Assembly: GCA_026393675.1 (NCBI GenBank)
Contig: JAPKZQ010000019.1
Coordinates: 14,333-78,332, forward strand
Source: Acidobacteriota bacterium
GTDB lineage: Bacteria; Acidobacteriota; Vicinamibacteria; Vicinamibacterales; JAKQTR01
DNA: 64,000 nucleotides
Reading direction: 5' to 3'
Part shown: positions 6,492 through 50,511 of the stretch, in pieces
Layout of the letters: each line of letters opens with the position of its first letter
Numbering within the stretch: position 1 is the stretch's first letter
Notes under the pieces: generated by a model
Told to the model about the DNA's origin: nothing
What the model saw: the letters and a program-made list of their open reading frames with translations, nothing else
Database searches by the model: none
Made by a program: the position numbers and the translations under genes

Positions 6492-7940
6492 GTGCCCACG
6501 CTCACGTTTCACATCGTCGCCGATATCGCCCTGTTGGCGCTGGCCGTCGCGGTCCGGGTCGTGACCGTCAATCGGCTCGTCCAGCGAAAGCTGCTGCTGA
6601 CGCTGATAGCCGGTTTTGCGTCGCTGGCAGCATCGGCCCTTCGCGTGGCCGGTCTGGTCCCGCCGGATCTCGTGGCCGACGTCACGGGTATCGACAACCT
6701 GCTCGCCGCGCTCGCGGCCATCAACTTTGTGGTGGTCGTTTCCATCAACCCGCTGCGCGAGGATCGAATCCCGGGCCGGTTTCCCAACATCGTCCAGGAC
6801 GCGATCATTGTCGGGCTATTCCTGGTCGTCGCCACCGCGGTGCTGCAGGAGAAGTTCCTGACGACCTCGGCCGTTGGCGCGGTCGTCGTGGGCTTTGCCC
6901 TGCAGGATACGCTCGGGAACGCGTTCGCCGGTCTCGCGATTCAGACCGAGAAGCCGTATCGGGCGGGGCAGTGGATCCGGGTTGGCGAGCACGAGGGGCG
7001 CGTCGAGGAGATTACGTGGCGCGCGACCAAACTGCGCACCAAGGCGGGGACCTTCGTCATCGTGCCGAACAACGTGATGTCGAAGGAGGCGATCGTCAAT
7101 TTTTCTGAGCCCATCATTCCGACGCGGATGTTCATCGACGTGGGCGCGTCGTATCATGCGCCCCCCAACGAGGTGAAGGCGGCGATTGCCGAAGCGATGA
7201 GGAACGCCCCGCTAGTGCTGGCGTTGCCCGAGCCCGATGTCGTGCTGCTGGACTTCGGTCCGTCGGCCGTGACGTATCGGGCCCGTTTCTGGATCGACGA
7301 TTATGCCCGCGACGAACCCGCCAGAAGCCAGGTGCGGACGTCCATCTGGTACGTCTTCCGCCGGCGGAACATCGAGATTCCATGGCCGATCCAGGTTCAG
7401 TACGGTCGTGAGGAGGTTCCCGGGCGTTCGCCCGACACGACCCCGCGCATCGCGGCCTCGCTCGCGCAGGTCGAACTGCTGCAGTCGCTCACCGACGCCG
7501 ATCGCCTCGAACTCGCAGCTCTCTGCGATGGGCGGCTCTACGCGGCGCACGAGGTCGTCGTGCGGCAGGATGCGCCAGGGAACTCGATGTTCGTCGTGTC
7601 GAGCGGTAAGGTCGAGATCGTGCTCGAGCCGGATGGACGCCCGCTCGCGGTCACCGGGGCGGGTGGCTTCTTCGGTGAGATGTCGCTGCTCACGGGGAGT
7701 CCTCGCACGGCGACGGTTCGCGCGCTCGAGGACTGCACGCTGGTCGAGTTGACCTCCGAGGCATTTCGGAGATTCGTGCTCGAGAAACCCGCGGTGCTCG
7801 ACGTGATTGCGGCGGCCGTGATGAAGCGCCGGGGCGAGATCGACCAGCGGCGTTCGGAGACAGCCACTCCCGCCGCGCCGGCGGAATCGGCGACGAGCTT
7901 CCTTGGACGTATCAGGAAGTTCCTCAGAATTCCCACCTAA
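6492..7940 (+). CDS. MscS-family mechanosensitive channel with a C-terminal cyclic-nucleotide-binding domain (bCNG-like)
   Basis: N-terminal TM helices, then the MscS core (GFALQDTLGNAFAGLAIQTEKPYRAGQWIRV...GRVEEITWRATKLRT..G..VIVPNN). C-terminal cNMP fold with FFGEMSLLTGSPRTATVRA. Confidence 0.8.
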   Translation: MPTLTFHIVADIALLALAVAVRVVTVNRLVQRKLLLTLIAGFASLAASALRVAGLVPPDLVADVTGIDNLLAALAAINFVVVVSINPLREDRIPGRFPNIVQDAIIVGLFLVVATAVLQEKFLTTSAVGAVVVGFALQDTLGNAFAGLAIQTEKPYRAGQWIRVGEHEGRVEEITWRATKLRTKAGTFVIVPNNVMSKEAIVNFSEPIIPTRMFIDVGASYHAPPNEVKAAIAEAMRNAPLVLALPEPDVVLLDFGPSAVTYRARFWIDDYARDEPARSQVRTSIWYVFRRRNIEIPWPIQVQYGREEVPGRSPDTTPRIAASLAQVELLQSLTDADRLELAALCDGRLYAAHEVVVRQDAPGNSMFVVSSGKVEIVLEPDGRPLAVTGAGGFFGEMSLLTGSPRTATVRALEDCTLVELTSEAFRRFVLEKPAVLDVIAAAVMKRRGEIDQRRSETATPAAPAESATSFLGRIRKFLRIPT

Positions 7941-8077
7941 CGGCACGCGGGTCGCGTCGCGCTCGTGCTTGCCCTGGGCGCGCGACAGCGCGGCTGGGCT
8001 GAACATTCTGAACTGCCAATACCAAAACCGAAATAAGCACATGTTAATACACATCCAGATAGTATCAATGCTAGAAA

Positions 8078-8106
8078 TTGCTATTTATGAACCCATGAAC
8101 TAATAT
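8078..8106 (+). promoter_or_regulatory. putative sigma-70-type promoter of the defence operon
   Basis: TTGCTA (8078-8083), 17 nt spacer, TAATAT (8101-8106), inside a 35% GC stretch. GAGG at 8114-8117 lies upstream of the GTG start at 8128. Confidence 0.4.
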
Positions 8107-8127
8107 TGCTTCTGAGGTGACACACAG

Positions 8128-11100
8128 GTGGCCGACGTGTCAGCTTCGTCCGGCAGAATCAGGGGATTGCGAGATCGGCTGGAGCTCACGCAGGCCCAAC
8201 TCGCTGATCGGCTGGGAGTCTCGTTCGTCACCGTCAACCGGTGGGAGCGCGGCCACGTTCAACCTTCGGATCTCGCCGTCAAGCGCCTAAGAGAACTGGA
8301 GTCAGAACTAGGTCCGGCTCACGTTGCCAGTCCAGCTGCTCACCAGAGTTCCACCCCTCCAGTGGTTGACTACCTTGGCGATCCAGATCGCGTCCGGCTT
8401 GTCGTGGAGGCCGAACGCCTGTCGTTTGGACACCTCGCAAACCCCGTGTTCGCCATCGAGACGTCGCTGATTCACCCGCTGCCACACCAGCGGCTCGCGG
8501 TGTACGAGCACATGCTCATCTTGCCGCGCCTCCGTTTCCTTCTGGCAGACGATGCGGGCGCGGGCAAGACGATCATGGCAGGCCTTTACATTCGGGAGAT
8601 GCTCGCACGCCGATTGTTAAAGCGAGTCCTGATCGTCGTTCCCGCCGGCCTGGTTGGGAACTGGGAACGAGAACTTCGCCGGCTCTTCAACCTCGGTTTC
8701 GGGATCGTACGCGGCTCGGACGCAAAGCGCGAGAATCCGTTTACTGGACAGGCTGGCGATCAGGTCATCTGCAGCCTCGACACGCTCGCCGGCCAGCCCA
8801 TGTTCAGCCGACTTCAGGACCCGGCCGTTGAACCCTACGACCTCGTCATCTTCGATGAGGCGCACAAACTGTCCTCGTCGAGAGACGCTGATCTGACAAT
8901 TCATAAGACGGACCGTTACAGGCTCGCTGAAGCGCTTGCGGGTGCGGTATCCGATGACGATCGGTGGACGTTGCACTGGTCGGTGCGGCACCTGCTGCTC
9001 CTGACGGCCACCCCTCACATGGGGAAGGACTTTCCCTACTACGCCTTGTGGCGGCTGCTGGAACCCGAAGTGCTCTCGACCTCTGACGCCTTCGCCTTGT
9101 TTCCCACAGAGGAACGAGCCAAACGGTTCATTCGGCGAACCAAGGAAGAGATGGTTCGTTACGACGGCACGCCACTCTACACGGAGCGACGGTCCGACAC
9201 GCTTGGGTTTGATCTGACCCCAGGCGATGTCAGCGAGCAGGCACTCTACGACCGCGTCACCGCATACATGCGTGGGTTCTACAACCGCGCTGGCATCTTG
9301 AACAAGTCGGCGGCCCGCCTGGCTCTCAGCGTGTTTCAGCGGAGACTGGCCAGCTCTACGTACGCCGTGCTCAGATCCCTCGAGCGCCGCCTCGAATGCC
9401 TCGACGAGATCGTCGCGCAGGTGCGCGAGGGCCGCCTGTCTGTCGAGCAGATCCGTGCGGCGCAACAGAAACTGTCCGGGCTTGAAGACCCGTTTGACAC
9501 GAGCACCCCCGATGATGAGTCCGCCGATGGGGACCGCGAATCGCATGAGGGTGAGGAAGACAAACTGCTCAGACTCGTGCTCGTCACGTCGATGTCCGAT
9601 CTTCAGGCGGAGCGACAAGAAGTGCAGAGCCTCATCCACCTTGCTCGCGGCGTCCTGGCGATTGGACACGAGTCGAAGTTTGAGACCCTACGCGAACTGA
9701 TCCTGGGCGCCGACTTCAAGGACCAAAAGCTCATTGTCTTCACCGAGCACCGTGACACGCTTGCGTGGCTCATTCAGCGCTTCGAGGCGATGGGTTTCAC
9801 CGATTCGGTCGCCTCCATCCATGGAGGGATGGGCTACCGTGAACGCGACGCCGAAGTCGAACGCTTTCGCAAGCCCGGAGAGGAGGGTGGGGCTCAACTG
9901 CTGGTCGCCACTGACGCGGCTGGAGAAGGTATCAACCTGCAGTTCTGCTGGCGCATGGTGAACTACGACGTGCCCTGGAATCCCGCCCGGCTCGAGCAGC
10001 GGATGGGGAGGATCCACCGATACGGCCAGGAACACGATGTGGTCATCGTCAACCTCGTCGCCAACCAGACGCGCGAGGGGCAGGTGATTGGGACCCTTCT
10101 GCGCAAACTCGAGGCCATTCGTCGCGAGATGCGATCCGACAAGGTGTTCGATGTCGTTGGGCGCCTCTTCGAGAATGTGCCCATCGCCGAGTACATGGCG
10201 CTGGCAGCCATCGACGGGGATGCGACACCGGGTGTCTCACGAATTGAAGGAGTGCTCACGCGAGCCCAGGTTGAAGCGATAGACGCGCGCGAACGGACCC
10301 TCTTCGGCGAAGGCGGTGACGTCAAGCCACATCTCGCGCGTCTCCGAGCGGTCACCGCGCGCGAGACGCTGCGACGGCTTCTTCCCGGCTACGTGCGTCA
10401 GTTCATTAACCATGCGGCGCCCGTGATGGATCTCGGCATCCATGGGGATCTCGAAGGCGTGTTCGCGCTGCGTCCCTTGCGAGCTGGAGCCACCGACAGG
10501 ATGCTGGAAGCCATGGAATCGTACCCGGCGTCGGTGCGTGGGCGACTGAGCGTCGCGCGACCGGACCCGACGTCTCCCGCGATCTTCCTCCATCCCGGCG
10601 AGCCCGTGTTCGAATACCTCCGTCACGCGGTGCTCGGGCGTTGTGCAACCGACGCTGCTCGTGGGGGGGCGTTCGTGGACCCGTGTGCGCGAGAACCGTA
10701 CCTCCTGTTCGTGGCGGAATGGCAGCTCGTCGAGGCTGGCACCGACGCCGTCTCACTGGCTTCCCAAGCCAGCACACTTCAGACCGAAGTCACTGCGGTG
10801 CGGGTGCTTCTGAACGGCTCAGTTGAGACAAGCCCGCTCGAGCAGATTCTGCTGCTACGCGGAGCGGACCGTTTTCCCACCTCAGCCAGCAGATTGGCAT
10901 CACGATCGGCGGACATGCAGACGCTGGCGGAGGAACACCTACGGACCCATCTGGTGGAACCGGCGGCAGACGGGCGCAAGGACGAGATCCTCCGCACGTT
11001 GAGCCAACGTGAGGACCTCCTGGTGTCCGCCTACGACCTGCAGGCTGCTGACCTGGCCCGCCAGCGGGCAAGGCTGACGGAGAAGGTTCAGCACGGCCAG

Positions 11101-12003
11101 CTTGGTGCAAGGGTCGTACTCGACCGCGTCAAAGAGCAGCAGCGCGCGGCCGAGGGTCGCAAGGCGGCTGCGCTCGCCGAGTTGAGATCCGAACCGGAGC
11201 GGGTGAAGGCGGGTCCGTTCAGGATCCTGGCGAAGGCGCTCGTCGTGCCGTCGAGCGTTCCCGAGGATCAGAGGCACTACGACGCCGAGGTCGAGGCGGC
11301 CGCCATGGAAGTCGCACGCGCTTGGGAGGAGGCTGCCGGCGCCGTGGTCAAGGACGTTTCGACGCCTCCCCGCGCCAGGGCTCTTGGGCTGGGCGACTAC
11401 CCGGGGTTTGACCTGCTCGCGATCTACCCAGGCGGTGAACAGCGGGCCATCGAGGTGAAAGGGCGCGCCACGCAAGGCGATGTCGAAGTATCGGAGAACG
11501 AATGGGCGCGTGCGTGCAATCTGCGGTCAGGCTACTGGCTGTATGCCGTCTTTGATTGCGCCTCCGCCCGCCCACGACTCGTCCGGGTACAGGATCCCTT
11601 TGCCCAGCTGCTGGTGCGCTCGCGCGGTGTCACCATCGACGATGCCGCCATTCTGGCTGTGGGCGAAGTGGCCGACATGTCGGCGTCTGCGTCGAAGGTG
11701 TTGCCTGAGACGTTGCGTCCGCTGTTCTGGGACCACGCCTTCGATGCGCTTCGATGGCCCACTGACCGCGATCTCGTCGTCGGCCGTGTGCTCCAGCACG
11801 GAGGAGACGACGCCGTTCGATGGATCCGGGACACAGCCGGGGACGCGGCGCTAGCCGACTGGATTCGTCTACGCCAGGGCCGCGGCATCGACCAACGCCA
11901 GCTTCGCTTCTGGCAGGCCGTTCTTGGTTTGTCGGCCGCTGAAGTGGATCCGTGGGTTGAGATAGCGCGTGAGAGTGCCTGGGGCGCAAGGAGCCAGCAG
12001 TGA
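8128..12003 (+). CDS. defence helicase: N-terminal XRE-type HTH + SNF2 ATPase + DUF3883/PD-(D/E)xK-like domain + C-terminal antitoxin-like extension
   Basis: HTH: LTQAQLADRLGVSFVTVNRWERG. SNF2 motifs: DDAGAGKT, IFDEAHKL, LVATDAAGEGINLQ, WNPARLEQRMGRIHRYGQ. DUF3883-like: GFDLLAIYPGGEQRAIEVKGR...WLYAV. C-terminal about 100 aa carries LFWDH...RFWQAVLGL. Confidence 0.9.
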   Translation: MADVSASSGRIRGLRDRLELTQAQLADRLGVSFVTVNRWERGHVQPSDLAVKRLRELESELGPAHVASPAAHQSSTPPVVDYLGDPDRVRLVVEAERLSFGHLANPVFAIETSLIHPLPHQRLAVYEHMLILPRLRFLLADDAGAGKTIMAGLYIREMLARRLLKRVLIVVPAGLVGNWERELRRLFNLGFGIVRGSDAKRENPFTGQAGDQVICSLDTLAGQPMFSRLQDPAVEPYDLVIFDEAHKLSSSRDADLTIHKTDRYRLAEALAGAVSDDDRWTLHWSVRHLLLLTATPHMGKDFPYYALWRLLEPEVLSTSDAFALFPTEERAKRFIRRTKEEMVRYDGTPLYTERRSDTLGFDLTPGDVSEQALYDRVTAYMRGFYNRAGILNKSAARLALSVFQRRLASSTYAVLRSLERRLECLDEIVAQVREGRLSVEQIRAAQQKLSGLEDPFDTSTPDDESADGDRESHEGEEDKLLRLVLVTSMSDLQAERQEVQSLIHLARGVLAIGHESKFETLRELILGADFKDQKLIVFTEHRDTLAWLIQRFEAMGFTDSVASIHGGMGYRERDAEVERFRKPGEEGGAQLLVATDAAGEGINLQFCWRMVNYDVPWNPARLEQRMGRIHRYGQEHDVVIVNLVANQTREGQVIGTLLRKLEAIRREMRSDKVFDVVGRLFENVPIAEYMALAAIDGDATPGVSRIEGVLTRAQVEAIDARERTLFGEGGDVKPHLARLRAVTARETLRRLLPGYVRQFINHAAPVMDLGIHGDLEGVFALRPLRAGATDRMLEAMESYPASVRGRLSVARPDPTSPAIFLHPGEPVFEYLRHAVLGRCATDAARGGAFVDPCAREPYLLFVAEWQLVEAGTDAVSLASQASTLQTEVTAVRVLLNGSVETSPLEQILLLRGADRFPTSASRLASRSADMQTLAEEHLRTHLVEPAADGRKDEILRTLSQREDLLVSAYDLQAADLARQRARLTEKVQHGQLGARVVLDRVKEQQRAAEGRKAAALAELRSEPERVKAGPFRILAKALVVPSSVPEDQRHYDAEVEAAAMEVARAWEEAAGAVVKDVSTPPRARALGLGDYPGFDLLAIYPGGEQRAIEVKGRATQGDVEVSENEWARACNLRSGYWLYAVFDCASARPRLVRVQDPFAQLLVRSRGVTIDDAAILAVGEVADMSASASKVLPETLRPLFWDHAFDALRWPTDRDLVVGRVLQHGGDDAVRWIRDTAGDAALADWIRLRQGRGIDQRQLRFWQAVLGLSAAEVDPWVEIARESAWGARSQQ

Positions 12004-12638
12004 TCGAGTTCCACGAAGAGATCCTGACCGGAACCCAGCAGGGGATGATCGCCCAGCTCGGGGCGGTCGCTTCAAAATTCGGTTATTACCTGGCCGGTGG
12101 TACTGCGATCGCGCTGCACGTCGGTCATCGTCGATCGGAGGACTTCGACTGGTTCGTCCCCACTCCTGGGCCGGTATCGCAGGCCGTTGTCGAGGCAATT
12201 GGGACTGGGGGCCTTGCGCTGGAGATCGACGACGTGGCCTCGGGCACGTTGCTGGGACGCATTCAAGGCGTGAAGGCGTCGTTCTTCGACTATCCGTACC
12301 CGCTGCTCGACGAGACCCTGGACTGGCCTGCGGCGAACGCCAGGATCGCGTCAGTGCGCGACCTGGCTGCCATGAAGCTGTTGGCGATTGCGCAACGAGG
12401 CTCTCGCAAGGACTTCGTCGACATTTACGAACTGCTTCGCCGCGGCGGCGACCTGAAGGTCATGCTGGCGGATTTCCAGGCGAAATTCCGAATGACAGAA
12501 ACGATCTCCGTCAAGCGCGGCCTCGTGTACTTCGACGACGCGGAGAGAGAACGAATGCCGGAGATGCTGGTGGCGCTCTCGTGGCCCGATCTCAGGAACC
12601 GTCTTCTCGCCGAACTTCAGGCCCTGACACGTTTGTAG
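12000..12638 (+). CDS. AbiEii/AbiGii-family (DUF1814-like) nucleotidyltransferase, short form
   Basis: Pol-beta NTase signature YLAGGTAIALHVGHRRSEDFDWF, plus LAAMKLLAIAQRGSRKDFVDIYEL. GTG 12000 overlaps the helicase TGA (GTGA). AAGGAG lies 6 nt upstream. Confidence 0.8.
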   Translation: MIEFHEEILTGTQQGMIAQLGAVASKFGYYLAGGTAIALHVGHRRSEDFDWFVPTPGPVSQAVVEAIGTGGLALEIDDVASGTLLGRIQGVKASFFDYPYPLLDETLDWPAANARIASVRDLAAMKLLAIAQRGSRKDFVDIYELLRRGGDLKVMLADFQAKFRMTETISVKRGLVYFDDAERERMPEMLVALSWPDLRNRLLAELQALTRL

Positions 12639-12656
12639 GCACCGGATTACGTCCTC

Positions 12657-15600
12657 ATGACTGACCGACCCCGGCTAATCGAAGTCGCGTTTCCTCTGGA
12701 GCAGACGTCGATTGACTCCGTGCACGAGAAGAGCGTTCGGCACGGGCACATCTCGACGCTGCACATCTGGCCCGCCCGGCGGCCGCTGGCGGCTTGTCGC
12801 GCGGCCCTGATCGCCACACTGCTGCCTGACCCGGGTACCTCCGAGAAACGTCGCGAGCTGTGTGAGCGAATCGGTGGCCGCGTCGAGGAAGTGTTGATGC
12901 GCAAGCCCGGCCCGGGCGGCGCCTCGGAAGAACGCATTGTCAAGCAAACCACGGGCGGCATCCTTCATTGGGGGCGTGAGACCGAGAACAAGGCCGACCT
13001 CGACTTCTTCCGGGAGGAAATCAGGAAGGCCTACGGTGGACGTGCGCCGCGTGTCCTGGACCCCTTCGCCGGCGGCGGGGCCATTCCCCTGGAGGCGATG
13101 CGCCTTGGATGCGAAGCCACGGCGATCGATATCAACCCGGTTGCCTGGTTCATCCTGAAGTGCACGCTGGAATATCCACAGAAGCTGGCTGGACAGAAGC
13201 GACCACTGCCGGACTTCGTGAGGACCGACCGCGAATTCATGGAGTCGTTCTTCAAGGCTCAGGGCTTGAAGGGCGCCATGCTGCGCACGCAACTCAGGAA
13301 GCTCCACCTCGACGACGCCAGCAACGCCAGCGGTTCGGTCCCGGCCAGGAGGACTCGAAGAATCACAAACGACGATCATCCCGTTCTTGAAGGGTTGGAG
13401 ATCGAAGAACACACACTCGAAGCAGATCTCGCCTGGCACGTTCGGGCCTGGGGTTGGTGGGTACTTCGGGAAGCGCGCCGCGACTTGGCGAAGTACTACC
13501 CGGTCTACGCGGACTGGCAGCCGTTGAGAGATGTCGCCGAATGGCGTGAGAAGCACCCAGACGAGTGGCGGCCCCTGACGTTGATCGCCGCGAAAGACGA
13601 GGGGACGCCGGACGTTGCATCCATGAACGTGGACCTGACGCCGGAGTTTCTCGAGGACGAACGGAACCCGCGTTGGGTGGCGAAGCCTCCAGTGGCTTAC
13701 CTGTGGGCCCGAACAGTCACGTGCAAGAACTGCCGCGCCACCATTCCGCTCCTCAAGACGCGCTGGCTCGCCAAGAAAGGCACCAAGCGCGTTCTCCTGA
13801 CGATGATCCCGAACGAGGACAGGACTGGCGTGGTCTTCGGCGTGGCATCTGGCGTCGCTTCGACGGGGGGCAACAACGCGCAGAAGCGCGAGCACGACCG
13901 CAAGTTGGGCCAGGGAACGATGAGTCGCGCAGGGGCGTGGTGTCCGTGCTGCGGAAAGCCCGATACCGTGGCGATGGAGAGCGGCGACCTGAGGGCCGAA
14001 GCCTCTGCTGGCCGGATGGGGTCGCTCATGACCGCCGTTGTCGTCGACGGTCCCTCGGGGAAAGAGTATCGACTCCCAACCGAGCATGAGCTCTCAGCAG
14101 CGGTGCCGCATGATACCGAAATCGAGAGGATCTTCGCCGAGATCCCATTCGGCATTCCGGACGAGCCCGTCCCGAAAGGAGGCAGTCGGGAGACCGGCGG
14201 CTCGCCTTTCACCGTTCATCTCTACGGACAAACCAAATGGCGCGACCTCTTCGGAAAACGCCAACTCCTGGCGCTAGGCTCGTTTGTTCGAGCGAGTCGC
14301 GCGATGCAGCGGACAGAACTGTTTGGGATGTGTGGGCCCGAGTGGCAGCAGGCCATCCGCGCGTACATTGCCGTGTGCACTGACAGACTTGCCGACTACA
14401 GCAGCGCAGTCTGCAGTTGGCATATCAGTGGGGAGAAACTCAGCCACACCTTTGTTCGGTTTGCCTTACCCATCCTATGGGACTTCACGGAGGTGAATCC
14501 AATTGGCGAAACGACAGGGGGATACAGCGGCGCGCTTGAATGGGTCACCCGCTTCATTCCGCACGCGCTCGCGTCAGGTCAGACCGCGCCGGAACCGACG
14601 GTTCTCGCTCAGAGCGCCATGAGCTCAGTCGGTGCCGGCTTCGATCTGGTTCTCACCGATCCACCCTACTACGATGCCATTCCGTATTCGGATCTCATGG
14701 ACTTCTTCTATGTCTGGCTCCGTCGTTCCCTCTGGGGCCTCGCGCCGGACATCGACGCAGTGTTTTCAGGTCAGCTCTCGCCCAAGTGGGACCACGCGAC
14801 CAACGATGGGGAGTTGATCGACGATCCCAGTCGGCATGGCGGCGACGGAGCCAAGTCGAAGCAGGTCTACGAAGACGGTATGGCGCGAGCGTTTGCGGCG
14901 GCCGGGAACGCACTGAACCCCGACGGTCGTCTTGTTGTGGTCTTCGCCAACAAGCAACCCGCTGCGTGGGAAACGCTGGTATCAGCTCTCATCCGAACAG
15001 GGTTCACGGTCGTGGGTTCCTGGCCAATCAGGACGGAGATGAGCAACCGGACCAGAGCGCTGTCTTCCGCTGCGCTTGCCTCGTCAGTGTGGCTCGTTTG
15101 CCGCAAGCGCCCCGAGGCTGCTCGTCCTGGCTGGGACAACCTCGTGCTCCAGGAAATGCGCCAGAACATCGGACTGAAATTGCGGGAGTTCTGGGACTCG
15201 GGCATCAGTGGCCCCGACTTCGTCTGGGCAGCGACGGGCCCCGCGATGGAAGCCTTCAGTAAGCACCCCATCGTCAAGAAGGCCAACGAGCAGGGCGCCG
15301 TCATGTCAGTGTCGGAGTTCCTGCGCGCCGTCCGGCGCCTCGTGGTGGAGTTCGTCGTCGGCCGTGTGCTCGGTGAGGCCAGCCACATCGACGCGCACGC
15401 TGCGGAGTCGGCGGCCGCGAGCCTGGACGACGTCACGACGTATTACCTCTTGCATCGTCACGACTTCAAAATGGACGATGCCCCCGCAGGTGCATGTATC
15501 CTCTACGCCGTGTCCTGCAACCTCTCCGAACACGAACTGGCAGACCGGTACGACATCCTCGCGCGTACCGGCGGAGTTCAACAGGACCAGGACGAGCCAG

Positions 15601-16067
15601 ACGAAGTCGACGATGCCGGAGACGACGAAGCACCTGAAGGCACAGGCAGTACCTTCAAACTCAAGAATTGGAAACATCGCCATGGATCCAATCTCGGCCT
15701 CGATCCGGTGGCCGAGCGGGCCCGCACCAGACGCGAACGCGACGAAGAGTTGGGCGGCAGGTTGTTCGACAGCGGTCCGGGACCGACCGCCAACGAATCG
15801 ACCCGCCCGCGTGTCGTCCCTCTCATCGACATGGTGCACCACCTGATGCACGTGTGGGTCGAGGGCGACGTCACCAAAGTGAACGAGTACGTGGACCGGC
15901 AGGGTCTTCGCAGAAGCGAGGTCTTCCGGCAGGTGCTGCAGGCCCTGGTCGAACTGTCGACGGACGGCGGGGAAGAACGCCGGGTCCTGGAGGCCGTTTC
16001 GAATCACCTCCAGGCCCGAGGCCAGGCTCCCGAATCGCTCCTGGATCGGCTGGGAGACCAGGAGTAG
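12657..16067 (+). CDS. DUF1156-domain DNA methyltransferase (COG1743-like, N6A/N4C DPPY class) with a Zn-ribbon
   Basis: DUF1156 N-terminus PRLIEVAFPLEQTSIDSVHEKSVRHGHISTLHIWPARRP. SAM motif VLDPFAGGGAIPLEA. Catalytic LVLTDPPYYD. CxxC pairs CKNCRA...CPCCGK. Confidence 0.9.
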   Translation: MTDRPRLIEVAFPLEQTSIDSVHEKSVRHGHISTLHIWPARRPLAACRAALIATLLPDPGTSEKRRELCERIGGRVEEVLMRKPGPGGASEERIVKQTTGGILHWGRETENKADLDFFREEIRKAYGGRAPRVLDPFAGGGAIPLEAMRLGCEATAIDINPVAWFILKCTLEYPQKLAGQKRPLPDFVRTDREFMESFFKAQGLKGAMLRTQLRKLHLDDASNASGSVPARRTRRITNDDHPVLEGLEIEEHTLEADLAWHVRAWGWWVLREARRDLAKYYPVYADWQPLRDVAEWREKHPDEWRPLTLIAAKDEGTPDVASMNVDLTPEFLEDERNPRWVAKPPVAYLWARTVTCKNCRATIPLLKTRWLAKKGTKRVLLTMIPNEDRTGVVFGVASGVASTGGNNAQKREHDRKLGQGTMSRAGAWCPCCGKPDTVAMESGDLRAEASAGRMGSLMTAVVVDGPSGKEYRLPTEHELSAAVPHDTEIERIFAEIPFGIPDEPVPKGGSRETGGSPFTVHLYGQTKWRDLFGKRQLLALGSFVRASRAMQRTELFGMCGPEWQQAIRAYIAVCTDRLADYSSAVCSWHISGEKLSHTFVRFALPILWDFTEVNPIGETTGGYSGALEWVTRFIPHALASGQTAPEPTVLAQSAMSSVGAGFDLVLTDPPYYDAIPYSDLMDFFYVWLRRSLWGLAPDIDAVFSGQLSPKWDHATNDGELIDDPSRHGGDGAKSKQVYEDGMARAFAAAGNALNPDGRLVVVFANKQPAAWETLVSALIRTGFTVVGSWPIRTEMSNRTRALSSAALASSVWLVCRKRPEAARPGWDNLVLQEMRQNIGLKLREFWDSGISGPDFVWAATGPAMEAFSKHPIVKKANEQGAVMSVSEFLRAVRRLVVEFVVGRVLGEASHIDAHAAESAAASLDDVTTYYLLHRHDFKMDDAPAGACILYAVSCNLSEHELADRYDILARTGGVQQDQDEPDEVDDAGDDEAPEGTGSTFKLKNWKHRHGSNLGLDPVAERARTRRERDEELGGRLFDSGPGPTANESTRPRVVPLIDMVHHLMHVWVEGDVTKVNEYVDRQGLRRSEVFRQVLQALVELSTDGGEERRVLEAVSNHLQARGQAPESLLDRLGDQE

Positions 16068-16090
16068 CTGTACGGAAAGAGGGTGAGGCG

Positions 16091-19000
16091 ATGACGAAGC
16101 TGCCGTGGACGCCGTGGCACAAGGTGGTGACACTGCGCGAGGACATCAAGACGGGAGAACTCGCGCTCAACGAGTTCGCGGCGGATCTCTACGACGTAGT
16201 GATGAAGCGCGGGACACGGCGCATCTACGAAGATCCGGCCGAGTTTTTTGCGCTGACGTTTCCGACGCTGGCCCTCCGAGAACTGGCCAAGGACGTCGTT
16301 CAGCGCCTTGCGGCGAAGAACCAGAAAGCTGTCCGACAACTGGAAACCACCTACGGTGGCGGGAAGACGCATGCGCTGATTACGCTCTTTCACCTGGTCA
16401 ACGACCCCGCGCGGCTGCCCGACCTCCAAAGCGTGAGGGAGTTCCGCGCGCACGTCGGGATCGACGCGCCCGCCACACAGGTGGCCATGCTTCCCTTCGA
16501 CAAGTTCGACGTTGAAAAGGGCATCGAGGTCCGAAGCCCCGAAGGCAACGTCCGAATGCTCCGCCAGCCCTGGAGTGCGCTGGCATGGCAGTTGGGGGGG
16601 GCGGACGGGCTTCGAATGCTCCACAGGGACAGCAAGGACGAAGAACGCACGTCGCCGCCGGCCGAGAACACGCTTGCCGACCTGCTCAAGATGCCGCTCA
16701 CCCGCGGCAAGTCCACACTGCTCCTGATTGACGAAGTGCTGATGTTCGCCCGCGTGGCGGTGGACGTTGACGGAGGCTGGCGCGAACGGTTGAAGAACTT
16801 CTTCCAGTACCTTACCCAGGCGGCTACCAAGGTCGACCGGTGCTGCATCGTTGCCTCTTTGCTGGCCACCGATCCGGACCGCAGCGACTCGGTGGGAAAG
16901 GAAATCACCGGCGAGCTGTACGACATCTTCAGGCGCGAGCGCGAGGCAGGTGTCGAGCCTGTCGGGAAGAAGGACGTCGCCGAGGTGCTGCGACGCAGGT
17001 TCTTCACTCCCGAGTCTCTCGAGAACCCAGCCAAGTTCCGTTCGCACGTGATCAACGCGCTCAAGGGCGTTATTGATCTCGACGACGAGACAAAGAAGTC
17101 TCAGAAGGACGCTGAAGAGCGGTTTCTGGCGAGCTACCCGTTCCATCCGGACCTGACGGAGGTTCTCTACAGCAAGTGGACACAACTCCAGGGTTTCCAG
17201 CGAACCCGTGGTGTGCTCCGCACCTTCGCGCAGGCGCTCCGGGACGCCGAACGGTGGGGTGACTGGTCGCCGCTGGTCGGTCCGAGCGTGTTCCTCGGAC
17301 CAGCCGATGGTGACGTCGTTTCCCAGGCTGCGCGTGAGTTGACGCAGGTCGCGACTGTCGAAGTCTACGAAGGCAAGCGCCAGGAATGGACCGCCATCCT
17401 CGCCGGTGAGCTCGACAAGGCGCAGCGGGTCCAGACCGACTACACCAGCCTCAAACACCGGGAAGTCGAACAGGCCGTCATTGCCACCTTCCTGCACTCC
17501 CAGCCGTCCGGACAAAAGGCCCAGTTGCGAGAACTTCTCGTTCTTGTCGGTACGACGCGTCCCGACAAGATCGAACTCCGCAAGGCGCTGTGCGGATGGT
17601 TCGATACGTCATGGTTCCTTGATGAGACGGTATCTGCCGGTGGTGTCGACGATGCCGGGCTGAAGCCGCCTCCATCGGTGTGGCGGCTGGGCTCGACGCC
17701 AAACCTGAAGCAGATGCACGCGGATGCGAAGACCCGCGTGTCAGAGGAACTTGCAGAAGACCGCCTGCTTGAGGAGATCCGAAGGACCAAGAGCCTGACC
17801 GCTACCGCAACTCAGGCTGGCGCTCGTGTCCACAACCTCCCGGAGAAGCCGGCCCTGGTCGAAGACGACGGGCAGTTCCGCTTTGTCGTGTTGGGCCCCG
17901 CAGCTGCATCTGAATCGGGGAAGCCCAGCCCGGAGGCGCGGCGGTTTATTCAGGAAACCACGGCGTCCGATCGTCCCCGCAAGGAACGCAACGCGATCGT
18001 TCTGGCGGTGCCATCTCGCGACGGCATCATGGCAGCCCGCACAGCCGTGCGAGACCACCTGGCGTGGCTAGGTGTCGGGGACACACTGACAAGCGGAGGC
18101 CACAAACTCGACGCCATCCGCCATCAAAACCTCTTGTCCTACACCGCAGCGGCCCTCGGTCGGGTGACGGACACCATCCAGCAGGCGTATTGCATCGTCG
18201 TCACGGTCAGTGAGAACGACGAGATTCAGGCGTTCAAACTACAGCCACCGAGCGGCCCGCTGTTCAGTGCGATCAAAGCTGACAATCGCTCGCGAATCGA
18301 GGAAACGGCGATCAGTGCTGATGCGTTGCTTCCTGGCGGGCCCTATCAGTTGTGGCGCGAAGGCGAGGACTCGCGTTGGGCCAAGGACCTGATTGGGGCA
18401 TTCGCACGTTTTCCACACCTGCCAAAGATGTTGCGGCGCGATGCGATCGTCGAGACCATTGCCCATGGATGTTCCGAGGGCTTCTATGTCGCGCGCCTGC
18501 TGCGCCCGGACAAGTCTCTGCGGACGTGGTGGCGCCAGACGATTGAGGCAGACGCGCTGGAGGATCCACGGCTGGAACTGGTGCTGCCGGACAAGGCCGA
18601 ACTCGCGGGCATCTCGGCGGACTTGGTGTGTCCTGGTGCGATTGACGACTTGTGGCCCGTTGGTGTGTCGGCTCCCGTAACCGTCGGAACCGTGCGGCAG
18701 TTCTTTGACGGCCGGCATACGATGCGCGTGTCGCGTGGAGGATATGACGAACCGGTGCCGGTTCCGAAAGCCGATTCCACGGTGGTGGATGAGGCAATTC
18801 GTTCGTCGGTCGGTGACGGGCGATTGTGGCTCAGCAACGGGCCAGCCAGCCTGTTCGAAGAGGATGTGCCCATTGGGTTGGTCACCGACTCGGCAGAACT
18901 CCGGCGACCGCCGGCGCCGTTGTCTCCCTTGTCGCTTCTCCCCGAACAGCTGCCCGAGGCGTGGCGAGACGGCTGTATCGACGGCTGGTCGTTGACGGCC

Positions 19001-19396
19001 GCGCTTTCCGATGAGACCGGGCCCGCACTGCCATGGAAGACGGTGGCTGCCGCGCTCGACTCCGCGTTCCGTGCGGGGCTGCTCGAACGAACCCCGGACT
19101 CCGGACCCTGGCCATGTGATTACGCGGGTGCGAAATCGCTCAAGGTCTCGATGGTCAGGCGGTCGCCCCAGTCGAGAGAATCCGTCAAACAAGAGCCCGA
19201 AGTGGTGTCGCTACGGGCGGATCAACTGCAAGATCTTGTTGACGTTTTGCCGGAGTTGCTCAAGGTAACAGCCGGGCACGAACTCCGCTTCAGAGTTACC
19301 GTGGAGATCAGCGGTAAGAAGGTACCAGACGCCGTCGTCACGAGCGCCGTAAACGCGATGCTGGACAAGATCGAACCGGGACTCAAGACTCGCTAG
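16091..19396 (+). CDS. DUF499-family (COG1483/BrxC-like) P-loop ATPase
   Basis: N-terminus MTKLPWTPWHKVVTLREDIKTGELALNEFAADLYDV. Walker A YGGGKTHALITL. Walker B TLLLIDEVLMF. ATG 16091 has an upstream GAGGGTGAGG. The ORF-track start at 15668 overlaps the methylase in another frame. Confidence 0.9.
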   Translation: MTKLPWTPWHKVVTLREDIKTGELALNEFAADLYDVVMKRGTRRIYEDPAEFFALTFPTLALRELAKDVVQRLAAKNQKAVRQLETTYGGGKTHALITLFHLVNDPARLPDLQSVREFRAHVGIDAPATQVAMLPFDKFDVEKGIEVRSPEGNVRMLRQPWSALAWQLGGADGLRMLHRDSKDEERTSPPAENTLADLLKMPLTRGKSTLLLIDEVLMFARVAVDVDGGWRERLKNFFQYLTQAATKVDRCCIVASLLATDPDRSDSVGKEITGELYDIFRREREAGVEPVGKKDVAEVLRRRFFTPESLENPAKFRSHVINALKGVIDLDDETKKSQKDAEERFLASYPFHPDLTEVLYSKWTQLQGFQRTRGVLRTFAQALRDAERWGDWSPLVGPSVFLGPADGDVVSQAARELTQVATVEVYEGKRQEWTAILAGELDKAQRVQTDYTSLKHREVEQAVIATFLHSQPSGQKAQLRELLVLVGTTRPDKIELRKALCGWFDTSWFLDETVSAGGVDDAGLKPPPSVWRLGSTPNLKQMHADAKTRVSEELAEDRLLEEIRRTKSLTATATQAGARVHNLPEKPALVEDDGQFRFVVLGPAAASESGKPSPEARRFIQETTASDRPRKERNAIVLAVPSRDGIMAARTAVRDHLAWLGVGDTLTSGGHKLDAIRHQNLLSYTAAALGRVTDTIQQAYCIVVTVSENDEIQAFKLQPPSGPLFSAIKADNRSRIEETAISADALLPGGPYQLWREGEDSRWAKDLIGAFARFPHLPKMLRRDAIVETIAHGCSEGFYVARLLRPDKSLRTWWRQTIEADALEDPRLELVLPDKAELAGISADLVCPGAIDDLWPVGVSAPVTVGTVRQFFDGRHTMRVSRGGYDEPVPVPKADSTVVDEAIRSSVGDGRLWLSNGPASLFEEDVPIGLVTDSAELRRPPAPLSPLSLLPEQLPEAWRDGCIDGWSLTAALSDETGPALPWKTVAAALDSAFRAGLLERTPDSGPWPCDYAGAKSLKVSMVRRSPQSRESVKQEPEVVSLRADQLQDLVDVLPELLKVTAGHELRFRVTVEISGKKVPDAVVTSAVNAMLDKIEPGLKTR

Positions 19397-19483: not shown

Positions 19484-19801
19484 CTACCGGACGACCGGAG
19501 TCGGCGGTCTCGTCAATCCCAGGTTCTTGTACACCATGTCGAGGTACTGCTCGATCGCCCTGGCCTCTGCCGGGTTGCTCGCCGTCGCCGCGCACGGCAG
19601 GCCGTAGACTTCCCGGCCGGCCTCACCCTTGCTGACGCGACTCTCGTAGTTGTTGTTCAGCCTCGCCACCGCGTTGAACAGCTGATCCTGTTTGGCGTTC
19701 TGAGCGCACTGCGATTCCACCAGCAGCTCAAACCATCGAAGGAGCTTCGAGCGCTGAGGCAACTTGGCTTCAACGTCAGGGCATGGTACCAGAACCGCCA
19801 T
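19484..19801 (-). CDS. hypothetical small protein (about 105 aa) at the distal edge of the defence island
   Basis: This is the C-terminal part of the 463-aa chimeric ORF. From MAVLVPCPDVEAKLPQRSKLLRWFELLVESQCAQNAKQ... the composition looks protein-like and less GC-biased. No family recognised. Confidence 0.35.
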   Translation of the reverse strand: MAVLVPCPDVEAKLPQRSKLLRWFELLVESQCAQNAKQDQLFNAVARLNNNYESRVSKGEAGREVYGLPCAATASNPAEARAIEQYLDMVYKNLGLTRPPTPVVR

Positions 19802-19924
19802 CGCCGGGGAGCGCCGGGCGGTGACACCCCGGCGACGGTTGTCCCAATCGTGCAAACCGGGAACCAGGCAGGCGTCACTCGATTCAGCATCTGATCCCCG
19901 CCGTTGGCACAAGGAGCGTCTGAC

Positions 19925-20480
19925 ATGATCACTCGACCCTCGCGACGAAGCGCACTGAAGTTGCTGGCGGCCGGCGGTCTGGCAACGGCGGCGGCTGCTC
20001 GCGCGACTGGAGCAGGACCCGTGCTGCATCCGCAGACACCCGCCTCCGCGCCGGACTCGCCCGCGCAGGCGGCGGACCGCGCCCGCCGCATCAAATGGTG
20101 GCACGACGCGCGCTTCGGGATGTTCATCCACTGGGGCGTGTACAGCGTTATTGGACGCCACGAATGGGTGATGGAAAACGAGGCGATTCCGGTTGCCGAG
20201 TATGAGCAGTTCGCCAGACGATTCCAGCCGAAGCCAAACGCGGCGCGCGACTGGGCGAAGCTCGCCCGCCGGGCCGGCCAGAAGTATATGGTGATGACGA
20301 CGAAGCACCACGAAGGCTTTTGCCTCTTCGACACCCAGACGACCAGCTACTGCGCGCCCAAACAGGGACCTGGCCGCGATCTCGTGCGCGAGTACGTGGA
20401 TGCCGCGCGGGCCGAAGGACTGCGCGTCGGGTTCTACTACTCGCTCATGGATTGGCATCACCCGGATGGCGCGCGCTGCG
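19925..20480 (+). pseudogene. alpha-L-fucosidase (GH29) 5' fragment, 3'-truncated
   Basis: AAGGAG RBS and TAT signal SRRSALKLLAAGG. GH29 motifs: WWHDARFGMFIHWGVYSV, KHHEGFCLFDT, GFYYSLMDWHHPD. Similarity stops after about 190 aa, where full-length enzymes are about 430-480 aa. End coordinate is approximate. Confidence 0.6.
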
Positions 20481-20812
20481 CGACCGATGAGGCCGCGCGG
20501 CGACTTGCTCAGTTCAGGGACCAGCGACTCCACCCGGCTCAAGGCGCAACGACCGGTGAGTCCCGTGCCGATCGGAATGCGGTGGCCGATGATGCCTTCT
20601 GGGTAATCGGTGACCGCTCGAATGACGAGGTCCGTCCCTTCCTTCAGCAGGATTGCGCAGGTGGAGTACTTGAGCGACTCCTTGATGGCCTGCACGGTGA
20701 GATTCAACAGCCGGTCCACATCGTGCTCGGCGTTGATCTGCAACCCAATCTGGAGGATCAGGTCGATATCGTGTTGCAGGACGTGGGCGTGTCGCGGTCC
20801 GTTGTCATCCAT
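20481..20812 (-). pseudogene. GAF-domain protein 5' fragment, 3'-truncated
   Basis: MDDNGPRH...DLILQIGLQINAEHDVDRLLNLTVQAIKESLKYSTCAILLKEGTDLVIRAV...IPIGTGLTGRCAL...LVPELSKSPR is the first part of a GAF fold. It then runs antisense into the fucosidase fragment. Boundary is approximate. Confidence 0.5.
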
Positions 20813-21142
20813 GAAACACCCGCAGTCTTCGCGGCGAGGGCGCAAGTCGGCAGTGGAGTGAGGACCATATTGCACGACTCCGGGTCATCCAGAGACGACG
20901 TGTTGGGTCGGCGACGGGAAAGGAGGTCCGCCCTCGCCCCTCAGGCTTCGGCGTGACATCGGTCGCGCGTCGCCAGTTCGCGAGGTTGTTGGTGGAGGAG
21001 TCCTTCGACTCGCTTCGGCCCTCGAGAGCCTCGGGCCGCGCTGAGTTCATCGAAGGGCGCTTGCTCCCCTCGATCTGGCCGACAACCGCCGGCGAACCAG
21101 CGTCAGCGTTCACCCAGCGGCGTCCGAGATGACCAAGCCCGA

Positions 21143-47407: not shown

Positions 47408-47416
47408 GGCGGCGCC

Positions 47417-50503: not shown

Positions 50504-50511
50504 GGGGATTC

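Follow-up and report, generated by a model that had tools for sequence, protein, structure and literature searches.

The window, the whole 64,000-nucleotide stretch of DNA that was analyzed, carries four co-directional, closely packed genes on its plus strand (8128–19396; all coordinates below refer to this strand). These are hmaA (8128–12003; GTG start), encoding a 1291-residue SNF2 helicase with a PD-(D/E)xK nuclease domain, an extra HTH_3 domain at its N-terminus and a DUF6922 domain at its C-terminus; a gene (12000–12638; GTG start) for a 212-residue nucleotidyltransferase (NTase) of the AbiEii/MenT (DUF1814) type; hmaB (12657–16067), encoding an 1136-residue DUF1156 DNA methyltransferase of the N6-adenine type; and hmaC (16091–19396), encoding a 1101-residue DUF499 AAA+/STAND-type ATPase. 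The open reading frames bear out the spacings given in the preliminary description: a 4-nt overlap at 12000–12003 and gaps of 18 nt (12639–12656) and 23 nt (16068–16090). In HMM searches against Pfam and PADLOC, with E-values far past chance, PADLOC labeled the trio Hma (HmaA, 4.8e-155; HmaB, 8.6e-118; HmaC, 4.6e-77, with residues 7–796 corresponding to model positions 4–770), and Pfam matched SNF2-rel_dom, Helicase_C, NOV_C (DUF3883-type), DUF1156 (2.2e-18), DUF499 (2.9e-17) and AbiEii (1.9e-14). All previously listed motifs were located, including FAGGG (137–141), DPPY (668–671) and two CxxC pairs (at 356 and 429) in HmaB, and Walker A GGGKT (89–93) and Walker B LLLIDEV (210–216) in HmaC; a PADLOC model search found no HEPN domain at the HmaC N-terminus. 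The searches thus uphold a helicase/methylase/ATPase operon with an additional AbiEii-like NTase between helicase and methylase.

Hma is a PADLOC system (Payne et al. 2021), and the trio has been re-described as a DUF499-centered, BREX-related ‘Type-1 BR’ system (NAR 2026, PMC12839542). Judged by its profile matches, the locus is a complete system of this kind, a restriction-modification-like anti-phage module. The earlier remark that such systems lack mechanistic characterization is outdated: HmaA was characterized in 2024 in Halomonas meridiana, where it defends against T4 through a NOV_C nickase (PMC11232893).

Upstream of hmaA lies a spacer (8020–8127) of 35% G+C versus ~65% for the window, with a conserved TGTTAATAC at 8042–8050 and a GAGG Shine–Dalgarno sequence at 8114–8117. 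The motif TGTTAtAtC...CACAaA is found upstream of hmaA in at least nine homologous loci, and the TGTTAATAC element may serve as an extended −10 box, an HTH_3 operator or both. A generic sigma-70 scan gave no match on the plus strand, so that the spacer, confirmed as AT-rich, is a putative rather than an established promoter region. The frame from 8078, previously taken as the start of the first gene, is interrupted by stop codons; the coding sequence opens at the GTG at 8128, a start backed by hmaA homologs of 1291–1295 residues. The NCBI gene call for HmaA has a different 5′ end.

HmaA begins with an XRE-type HTH_3 DNA-binding domain (8158–8289; residues 11–54; Pfam 2.7e-09) that is present in most of its 120 closest relatives, with or without DUF6922. 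The SNF2 ATPase core (8482–10026), delimited by Pfam and by motifs, comprises an N-lobe (residues 119–322) with Walker A DDAGAGKT (141–148) and DEAH (243–246), and a Helicase_C domain (517–633) with QRMGRIHRYGQ (624–634). In the NOV_C nuclease domain (11293–11580; residues 1056–1151; Pfam 7.1e-13), D1095, E1109 and K1111 (E1109-V-K1111) and E1123/E1125 are intact; the equivalent residues of Halomonas HmaA, D1084/E1104/K1106/E1121, are required for nicking and for defense against T4 (PMC11232893). A linker of low model confidence (11581–11700; residues 1152–1191; pLDDT 50–58 over tail residues 1–29) leads to the DUF6922 domain (11701–12000; residues 1192–1291; Pfam match 1192–1289, 5.5e-08). 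Within this linker, an in-frame ATG (11677) marks the point at which DUF6922 genes that stand free begin, according to alignment and to the junction of an unfused locus (L046, below). The tail is collinear from end to end with free DUF6922 proteins, which usually have ~105 residues, at 45–60% identity; it keeps all 11 family-invariant residues and is modeled as all-alpha with pLDDT > 90. A search for structural relatives of DUF6922 in the PDB found none. Neither HTH_3 nor DUF6922 appeared in the preliminary description.

DUF6922 and the NTase are strictly linked. In species-representative genomes, 79 of the 80 top-ranking NTase loci encode DUF6922 directly upstream of the NTase (tblastn found 63 free copies and a profile HMM another 11; four are fused, and one is free but abuts hmaA), from which we infer that the NTase is one half of a toxin–antitoxin (TA)-like pair whose other half is here fused in frame to the helicase-nuclease. 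Three of four free DUF6922 genes examined overlap the downstream NTase gene, and the fourth is adjoined by an NTase remnant. Free DUF6922 can also bear a DNA-binding N-terminus, either FitA-like RHH (L021) or HTH_3 (L061), as in classical type II antitoxins, and DUF6922–NTase pairs on a Hymenobacter plasmid stand among other TA genes. We propose that the DUF6922 tail of HmaA acts as an NTase-neutralizing, antitoxin-like module; as the domain lacks a PDB relative and is unrelated to AbiEi, MenA1 and MenA3, no known neutralizing mechanism can be transferred to it with confidence. The NTase-bearing variant of Hma had been thought undescribed, and no description was found in the searchable literature or PADLOC-DB 2.0; its meaning is altered, however, because the NTase is not a lone insert but has its cognate partner fused to the HmaA C-terminus.

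The AF2 model of the NTase (pLDDT 95.8) finds its best PDB folds in JHP933, MenT1 and MenT4, at sequence identities of 14–18% and TM-scores of 0.5–0.64; PADLOC AbiEii models score weakly (best E 2e-05). Invariant residues across 31 sequences are G33, G34, R44, S46, D48, D50, K126, D138 and D141, and the spacing of R44-x-S46-x-D48-x-D50, K126 and D141 agrees with that of MenT3 S78/D80 and MenT4 S67/D69/K171/D186 (PMC7450476). S46 occupies the position of the regulatory auto-phosphorylation sites S78 of MenT3 and T39 of MenT1 (PMC11375011). The GTG start codon overlaps the hmaA TGA stop as GTGA and is preceded by a Shine–Dalgarno sequence, AAGGAG (11988–11993).

The HmaA–DUF6922 fusion recurs in 19 sequenced loci, all metagenome-assembled: 18 from independent samples, each in frame with zero stops, plus L099. 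Of the 120 closest HmaA relatives, 31 carry PF21956 (DUF6922) and 89 do not. All six NTase homologs at 51–74% identity lie in the same four-gene order, and identities to the window of the HmaA core, the tail, the NTase and HmaB co-vary across loci (Spearman rho 0.60–0.77). In L011 and L012, insertion sequence elements cut the operon 3′ of the NTase gene, which thus remains joined to hmaA. L046 is unfused: hmaA ends in a TGA stop and is followed, after 6 nt, by a separate DUF6922 gene, the NTase gene and hmaB. Neighbor-joining places the L046 NTase apart from the fused clade in 198 of 200 bootstraps; the fused clade itself receives modest support (128/200). Unfused pairs also occur within other DUF499/DUF1156 loci (L036 and L039, verified with Pfam; L030, L033 and L096, by tblastn only). 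We read L046 as a probable intermediate, and the pairs in other DUF499/DUF1156 loci as pointing to repeated capture.

These observations suggest the following model. HmaB would presumably methylate host DNA, the HmaC ATPase would presumably assemble or scan, and HmaA, as SNF2 translocase and NOV_C nickase, would attack foreign DNA. A second, TA-like module, in which a small all-alpha DUF6922 protein is paired with a MenT/AbiEii-type NTase, has been integrated into this Hma system. In the window’s lineage, hmaA has lost the stop codon that once parted it from the DUF6922 gene, which makes the antitoxin-like domain a C-terminal tail of the helicase-nuclease on a flexible linker, with the NTase gene translationally coupled to it through the GTGA overlap and its own Shine–Dalgarno sequence. 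An active NTase would add nucleotides to tRNA 3′ ends, as MenT1/3/4 and AbiEii do, and so arrest translation. The DUF6922 tail would silence it, whether by binding it or by inducing auto-phosphorylation of S46, until HmaA is lost, depleted or disabled, whereupon the NTase would be switched on as a second-line abortive or ‘guard’ effector; hmaA would incidentally become addictive. That the NTase is such an HmaA-silenced, translation-arresting backup toxin strikes us as probable, if well short of secure: that it is toxic, that DUF6922 neutralizes it, that it targets tRNA and how it is triggered are what we infer from family resemblance and gene arrangement.

The pair might instead be a selfish TA cassette that entered the hmaA–hmaB junction, where the hmaA stop was lost neutrally and loss of the tail then became lethal; it would at most stabilize the operon and play no part in phage defense. 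That junction is a hotspot for unrelated cassettes, so co-location alone is no proof of functional coupling: embedded genes of many kinds occur in ~63–66% of Hma systems (62.7% of 1,485 systems, bioRxiv 10.1101/2024.01.29.577857; 66.5% in another count, PMC11232893), and a close, tail-less HmaA (63% identical) bears a SIR2-like cassette at the same position. Some 70 of the 80 pairs are free-standing in unrelated contexts, pairs occur among other TA genes on plasmids, and the fused and unfused states, as L046 illustrates, differ by one stop codon. A TA fusion, once formed, would persist through addiction even without a role in defense. Nevertheless, at least four NTase lineages show an association with DUF499/DUF1156 loci, in three different gene orders; 10 of the 80 NTase loci sit inside BR/Hma-type systems, although Hma occurs in <1% of genomes (1,485 systems in ~234,000 genomes); and the fusion has been retained across deep divergence (HmaA identity 53–78%) and several phyla. 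AbiE is itself an abortive-infection system. Seven of nine tested Hma-embedded genes were, moreover, validated as defense genes (bioRxiv 10.1101/2024.01.29.577857). On this evidence we regard a mere passenger as unlikely, though a contender to be taken seriously.

It seems quite improbable that the NTase is a non-toxic catalytic subunit of Hma, docked through DUF6922, that extends the 3′-OH of NOV_C nicks and so blocks religation, or nucleotidylates a protein or phage nucleic acid. The HmaA nuclease is a nickase leaving 3′-OH ends, Pol-beta-fold NTases extend 3′-OH termini, and the flexible linker, dedicated binding domain and translational coupling would place the NTase on the helicase. But the pair is overwhelmingly free-standing, with neither helicase nor nuclease; antitoxin-type RHH and HTH fusions of DUF6922 fit a self-contained TA module; the nearest characterized NTase relatives target tRNA, not DNA; and most Hma systems function without an NTase. 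A misassembly, sequencing error or pseudogenized junction beside a decaying NTase might be suspected in a metagenome-assembled genome whose HmaA 5′ end is called differently by NCBI, but is already effectively refuted by 18 loci whose junctions, obtained with independent samples and assemblers, are in frame and free of stops, by an NTase GC3 (0.76) that agrees with that of the hma genes (0.73–0.75), and by the intactness of all catalytic and family-invariant residues in NTase and tail.

The favored reading, an Hma system with an integrated TA-like pair, can be set against known systems. With described Hma the locus shares an SNF2 helicase with C-terminal NOV_C, a DUF1156 N6-methyltransferase and a DUF499 ATPase in one co-directional operon, conserved nuclease catalytic residues and, as in most loci, an additional gene between hmaA and hmaB. 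It differs in the C-terminal DUF6922, which the PADLOC HmaA model lacks (its match stops at residue 1142), in the N-terminal HTH_3, in an HmaC without HEPN, and in a MenT/AbiEii-type NTase that is missing from described Hma-embedded candidates. No PADLOC-DB 2.0 candidate model matches the NTase or DUF6922, and a description of the fused arrangement, a recurring one, was not found in the searchable literature. Like HEC-01 to HEC-09 (bioRxiv 10.1101/2024.01.29.577857), the cassette is flanked on both sides by hma genes that share its orientation, a position that implies a defense role (‘guilt by embedding’); those are separate genes, whereas here half of the embedded module has been absorbed into a core Hma protein as one of its domains.

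The NTase belongs, like that of AbiE, to PF08843 (DUF1814), with pol-beta motifs I/II and motifs III/IV, and likewise has an upstream partner gene with overlapping stop and start codons, whose free forms can bear a DNA-binding N-terminus. Unlike AbiE, it is short, lacks a COG5340-type AbiEi antitoxin and is paired with an unrelated all-alpha DUF6922 of ~100 residues within a 1291-residue helicase. Its top structural matches, MenAT1/MenAT3/MenT4 (Mycobacterium tuberculosis) and JHP933 (H. pylori), are distant in sequence; it shares with MenT the R-x-S-x-D-x-D loop, the serine at the auto-phosphorylated position and the K...D pair. MenA1, an antitoxin, resembles DUF6922 in being small, non-DNA-binding and structurally unique, but neither MenA1 nor MenA3 is similar to it in fold.

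The proposed logic matches that of PrrC–EcoprrI, in which an anticodon nuclease is kept latent by a type I restriction-modification enzyme: a suicide effector is silenced by a restriction-modification component and forms a second line should the first be overcome. Similarly, in over half of Type-1 BR systems a HEPN RNase, the presumed backup suicide effector, is fused to the DUF499 ATPase (PMC12839542), tying a translation-targeting suicide effector to a restriction-modification-like component as a second line. Unlike in both of these, the presumed effector here is an NTase where theirs are RNases, and its attachment is indirect, with the antitoxin-like domain fused and the toxin a separate polypeptide, and lies on the helicase-nuclease instead of the ATPase or a restriction-modification complex. 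By fusing the partner of a toxin-like enzyme onto the Hma helicase, this arrangement may connect two layers of immunity.

The operon occupies the + strand and comprises hmaA (8128-12003), which encodes a helicase-nuclease of 1291 aa from a GTG start, an NTase gene of the AbiEii/MenT type (12000-12638; 212 aa), hmaB (12657-16067; 1136 aa), encoding a DUF1156 methyltransferase, and hmaC (16091-19396; 1101 aa), encoding a DUF499 ATPase. The ORF map bears out the positions of the four reading frames in the preliminary description, its 4-nt overlap and its gaps of 18 and 23 nt are exact, and every motif quoted there is found in the HmaA, HmaB and HmaC sequences. The beginning of the first gene has to be moved: the frame opening at 8078 holds stop codons, and the coding sequence starts with the GTG at 8128, which is preceded by GAGG at 8114-8117 and backed by homologues of 1291-1295 aa with an HTH_3 domain. 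The NCBI gene call for HmaA (P0358, 1213 aa) begins ~78 codons later, and so is without HTH_3 (window 8128-8361). The AT-rich region said to lie upstream is present, the spacer at 8020-8127 having 35% G+C compared with ~65% for the window.

We regard it as nearly certain that this locus is a bona fide member of the Hma systems, also termed Type-1 BREX-related (BR) systems, as had been proposed. HmaA is matched by the PADLOC HmaA model (4.8e-155 over aa 84-1142) and by Pfam SNF2-rel_dom, Helicase_C and NOV_C, a DUF3883-type nuclease whose PD-(D/E)xK residues D1095, E1109 and K1111 are intact; HmaB (PADLOC, 8.6e-118) carries DUF1156 (Pfam, 2.2e-18) with FAGGG at residues 137-141 and DPPY at 668-671; and HmaC (PADLOC, 4.6e-77) carries DUF499 (Pfam, 2.9e-17) with GGGKT at 89-93 and LLLIDEV at 210-216. 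All genes lie in one cluster on one strand, the NTase is the sole embedded gene, and NOV_C is fused to the helicase; Type-1 BR systems are defined by a nuclease fused to the helicase and by being without a DUF3780 gene, both of which hold here, and an N-terminal TUDOR domain on the helicase is given for Type-1 and Type-3 (PMC12839542).

The preliminary description identified the operon with its extra NTase correctly, and implied a more isolated variant than it is, because Hma has been characterized and embedding of genes in it is common. Hma was defined by PADLOC in 2021, and a 2026 comparative study renamed the trio 'DUF499-centred BREX-related systems', with Type-1 as the helicase-nuclease form (PMC12839542). 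HmaA from Halomonas meridiana shields E. coli against T4 in a manner that requires the helicase and the NOV_C nickase residues D1084, E1104, K1106 and E1121, and the cells pass into a state that resembles dormancy, without lysis; neither HmaB nor HmaC was needed for this protection, no methylation effect was observed, and over-expression of HmaB left T4 infectivity unmodified (PMC11232893). In more than half of taxa with Type-1 BR systems, a HEPN RNase is fused to the ATPase and presumed to be a backup suicide effector (PMC12839542). Embedded genes occur in 62.7% of 1,485 Hma systems, and seven of nine Hma-embedded candidates tested were active (bioRxiv 10.1101/2024.01.29.577857). The Hma and BR papers and supplements searched make no mention of AbiE, AbiEii, NTase, DUF1814 or DUF6922. 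In another respect the variant is more interesting than had been stated, because an antitoxin-like domain is built into its core effector.

Both flanks are housekeeping-like, with genes for a CHASE2 cyclase, M48 peptidase and MscS channel upstream and, downstream, an ORF that matches nothing and then a TonB receptor gene. A mobile-element origin of the locus was rejected, given these flanks and since neither an integrase nor an adjacent tRNA was found in the window. The downstream ORF (19484-20875, - strand, 463 aa) is convergent with hmaC, has coding-like codon bias and finds no match in Pfam, PADLOC or NCBIfam; it probably lies outside the Hma system, because the downstream neighbour varies in homologous loci. 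Further along, a Fic/DOC-family gene with a DUF977-like C-terminus (37138-38217, - strand) may be another toxin or AMPylase without relation to the Hma locus, and the stretch at 45836-53652, where an HlyD-type membrane-fusion gene stands ahead of a tandem pair of genes for AcrB-type RND transporters (47417-50503 and 50500-53652), resembles a standard efflux operon.

Two domains of HmaA had escaped the preliminary description: an XRE-type HTH_3 (aa 11-54) and, at the extreme C-terminus, DUF6922 (PF21956). Many free-standing proteins of ~103-116 aa are homologous to the C-terminal 129 residues at 45-60% identity, and a 38-sequence alignment shows this tail to be collinear with free DUF6922 proteins from the LPxxLRPLFWD motif through the final W..R, with 11/11 invariant residues kept. 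In an AF2 model, the tail forms a confident six-helix domain (HmaA 1192-1289, pLDDT >90) preceded by a low-confidence linker. When the DUF6922 model was compared with PDB folds, no match fell below E = 3, and a resemblance to MenA1, AbiEi or an HTH fold therefore cannot be claimed; DUF6922 has no PADLOC model, and the term is absent from the searchable literature. An in-frame ATG (11677-11679; HmaA M1184) lies eight codons ahead of the DUF6922 core. Free DUF6922 genes start at the matching position, for example at 4709 in the Armatimonadetes locus L046, and the ATG is missing in some fused homologues. It is probably a vestigial start codon; internal initiation there may also yield free DUF6922.

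That HTH_3 arrived with a toxin-antitoxin (TA) module was considered and rejected, as the domain is present in most tail-less relatives and in L046, where DUF6922 is unfused; by its distribution, HTH_3 is a property of this HmaA subfamily and not of the module. A motif, TGTTAtAtC-N3-5-CACAaA, precedes hmaA in the window (8040-8070) and in L001, L007, L009, L011, L013, L018, L019, L046 and L098, the last of which has neither tail nor NTase. The window copy reads TGTTAATAC at 8042-8050, and GTTAATAC (8043-8050) forms an imperfect inverted repeat with GTATCAAT (8062-8069). The site may serve as an extended -10 promoter, as an operator for the HTH_3 domain of HmaA, or as both. A generic sigma-70 scan called no + strand promoter, and terminator-like sites were below shuffle expectation in a terminator scan; the candidate promoter is thus proposed solely from the motif common to homologous loci.

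The probable nature of the tail is suggested by the company that DUF6922 keeps elsewhere. Scanning a single genome for each species recovered at least 576 relatives of the NTase, and in the best 80 of these loci, for which the upstream gene was scored, DUF6922 lies directly upstream of the NTase in 79: as a free gene in 63 (tblastn) and a further 11 (profile HMM), fused to HmaA in four and as a separate gene abutting hmaA in one (L046), with none detected in the remaining locus. The linkage of DUF6922 and NTase is near-obligate. Of four free DUF6922 genes examined, three are overlapped on their downstream side by an AbiEii-like gene of ~210 aa, with unrelated housekeeping genes as neighbours, and the fourth keeps an NTase remnant. 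Some free DUF6922 proteins have an N-terminal DNA-binding-type domain, namely a FitA-like ribbon-helix-helix (L021 and L086), HTH_3 (L061) or a weak wHTH (L064); type II antitoxins classically combine an N-terminal domain for DNA binding with a C-terminal one that neutralizes the toxin. In a plasmid of Hymenobacter, a DUF6922-like gene precedes the NTase with other TA genes (VbhA/Fic) around it; on the Aquifex plasmid ece1, the NTase lies among CopG and AbrB/PIN genes, and the small protein upstream of it was not recognized as DUF6922. The family comprises at least 453 clusters at 50% identity and extends over many bacterial phyla, CPR and archaea. Searching 1.84 billion representatives with the tail (window 11614-12000) gave nearly all short proteins, none of the best 150 exceeding 393 aa. 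Full-length fused helicases exist in another database; that they are missing here probably reflects how the representative of each 50% cluster is chosen, and the search is no guide to the fused fraction. We consider it quite likely that DUF6922 is the neutralizing partner of the NTase.

The NTase sequence has no match in the PDB. Its predicted structure (pLDDT 95.8) finds as best PDB folds JHP933, MenT1 and MenT4, with ANT(2'') and CCA-adding enzymes ranking next. Invariant in 31 homologues are G33 G34, R44, S46, D48, D50, K126, R133 G134, D138 and D141. By motif spacing, not residue-level superposition, S46-x-D48 equals S78-x-D80 of MenT3 and S67-x-D69 of MenT4, and K126...D141 likewise equals K171...D186 of MenT4 by spacing. 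As in MenAT-type systems, a Ser/Thr residue stands two positions before the first catalytic Asp (T39 in MenT1; S46 here). MenT3, whose toxicity needs D80, K189 and D211, puts pyrimidines on tRNA 3'-CCA ends (PMC7450476); antitoxin-induced auto-phosphorylation at S78 of MenT3 and T39 of MenT1 silences these toxins (PMC11375011), and has recently been reported for AbiEii too (bioRxiv 10.64898/2026.01.19.700257). Since the catalytic and phospho-acceptor residues are conserved, the NTase looks catalytically competent and open to regulation in the manner of the MenT toxins. It has its own Shine-Dalgarno sequence (AAGGAG) within the hmaA coding sequence, and the GTG with which it starts shares bases with the TGA stop codon of hmaA, the same arrangement as in free pairs.

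The fusion is not confined to this genome. The order HmaA (ending NOV_C-DUF6922), NTase, DUF1156, DUF499 recurs in all six NTase homologues sampled at 51-74% identity; core and tail share one frame with zero stops in 18 loci, and a fused HmaA, its tail having diverged further, is also found in L099. PF21956 is found in 31 of the 120 closest HmaA relatives, all of them top-ranked, while the others (53-63% identity, ~1190 aa, most with HTH_3) end after NOV_C. Of the 120 best NTase clusters, ~95 come closest to NTases of the fused type. The identities of HmaA core, tail, NTase and HmaB to the window co-vary across loci (rho 0.60-0.77), and the four genes therefore travel together; in L011 and L012, IS elements break the operon after the NTase, which stays attached to hmaA. 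The fusion is thus in-frame, conserved and co-inherited, a feature of the lineage. Additional genes also occur in these operons: a DUF3800 gene between hmaB and hmaC in L001-L003 (about 10798-11679 in L001), and a DUF3644 gene after the NTase in L099 (7004-8122).

Unfused arrangements occur as well. In L046, from an Armatimonadetes MAG, hmaA ends in TGA and is followed, 6 nt on and in the same frame, by a 112-aa DUF6922 gene, the NTase and hmaB; the tblastn match contains this in-frame TGA and the pair is therefore unfused, so that, as read from the two sequences, the fused and unfused states differ by one stop codon. The L046 NTase falls outside the fused clade in 198 of 200 NJ bootstraps, pointing to an independent capture, or a replacement, at that junction. 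More distant DUF499/DUF1156 systems, in which the genes are ordered differently, also contain unfused pairs: these are Pfam-verified in L036 (DUF499, 324-aa gene, DUF6922, NTase, DUF1156, SNF2 helicase without NOV_C) and L039 (DUF1156, DUF6922, NTase, STAND-TPR gene, DUF499), and seen by tblastn only in L030, L033 and L096. Overall, ten of the 80 best NTase loci are inside BR/Hma-type systems, and they represent at least four NTase lineages. In L021 and L086, an RHH-DUF6922 gene (7426-8004 and 7402-8004, respectively) and the NTase gene after it stand without Hma nearby and the NTases nest within the fused clade, which may reflect escape of the module from Hma by fission, or an ancestral form. 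The hmaA-hmaB junction also accepts other cargo: L098, whose tail-less HmaA is 63% identical and has HTH_3, carries there (12570-14178) a cassette of three genes that encode 107 aa, 350 aa (SIR2_2-like) and 79 aa, with integrase, HipA and HepT-like genes upstream. The main rival account, which draws on such traffic and on the single stop codon separating L046 from the window, is that a selfish TA module landed at this recognized hotspot for insertions, was fused by neutral stop-codon loss and is kept by addiction; we give it a lower, though appreciable, probability. Were it right, the locus would be a clean example of addiction modules welded to defence genes.

On balance we favour the overall picture of an Hma system with an NTase toxin whose DUF6922 neutralizer is tethered to HmaA, an arrangement that would form a backup or guard effector. 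The NTase would be a tRNA-directed toxin, neutralized by DUF6922 through binding or induced auto-phosphorylation of S46, and, with the neutralizer tethered to HmaA, its activity would depend on the presence or state of HmaA. The outcome would resemble that of HEPN-DUF499 fusions and of PrrC-EcoprrI, a parallel for a backup or guard effector. The guard logic itself is put forward tentatively, as rather less likely than not. Offered with similar reserve is the reading that the helicase-nuclease HmaA itself acts as the antitoxin, its presence, integrity or conformation restraining an NTase that, like the MenT toxins, blocks tRNA; if a phage degraded, inhibited or out-titrated HmaA, or stopped its synthesis, the toxin would be released and the infection aborted. 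This would constitute a hard-wired 'guard' circuit joining an R-M-like system to abortive infection, and would give DUF6922 proteins their first assigned role, that of NTase antitoxins of a new class.

The locus bears on the coordination of layered immunity, that is, on how an abortive 'last resort' learns of the failure of the first line. It is a compact, clonable four-gene test case in which the toxin family is well defined (MenT/AbiEii), the probable neutralizer is covalently part of the first-line effector, and natural controls exist in the unfused L046, tail-less sister operons and free-standing pairs; an uncharacterized Pfam family, DUF6922, is thereby given a testable function as NTase antitoxin. 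It also exposes a blind spot of software that annotates defence systems: the output of PADLOC-type tools would be 'Hma with one embedded unknown gene' without any AbiE, because the NTase has a partner other than AbiEi, concealed within hmaA.

Compared with known systems, the locus is, by gene content, neither BREX nor DISARM, because PglZ, DrmB and DrmC were not found and DrmD is under its cut-off. BREX (types 1-6) has PglZ, BrxC, PglX and BrxA/B/L; here the helicase fits BrxHI/HII worse than HmaA, the PglX match on HmaB is weak and local (PADLOC, 1.3e-06), and none of the genes scanned in the flanks, from 13-28 kb of the window, has a PglZ domain. DISARM has DrmD/DrmA helicases, DrmB (DUF1998) and DrmC (PLD), whereas the window helicase reaches 319.6 bits for DrmD against a cut-off of 610 (NCBIfam), matches PADLOC DrmD more weakly than HmaA, and has no DUF1998 or PLD domain among the flanking genes scanned. 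With AbiE, the locus shares the AbiEii DUF1814 NTase (Pfam, 1.9e-14) with pol-beta motifs I/II and motifs III/IV, which the PADLOC AbiEii models match weakly (2e-05). In AbiE, the antitoxin AbiEi (wHTH and C-terminal domain, COG5340) lies upstream, whereas the window has DUF6922 there instead, and the AbiEi family has no match on HmaA or its tail; since AbiEi is absent, the locus falls outside AbiE as strictly defined. With the free DUF6922-NTase modules, by contrast, the window shares the adjoining of the two elements with overlapping or abutting stop and start, DUF6922 ending at 12003 and the NTase GTG lying at 12000, and it differs from them in that its DUF6922 is fused to hmaA rather than being a separate gene.
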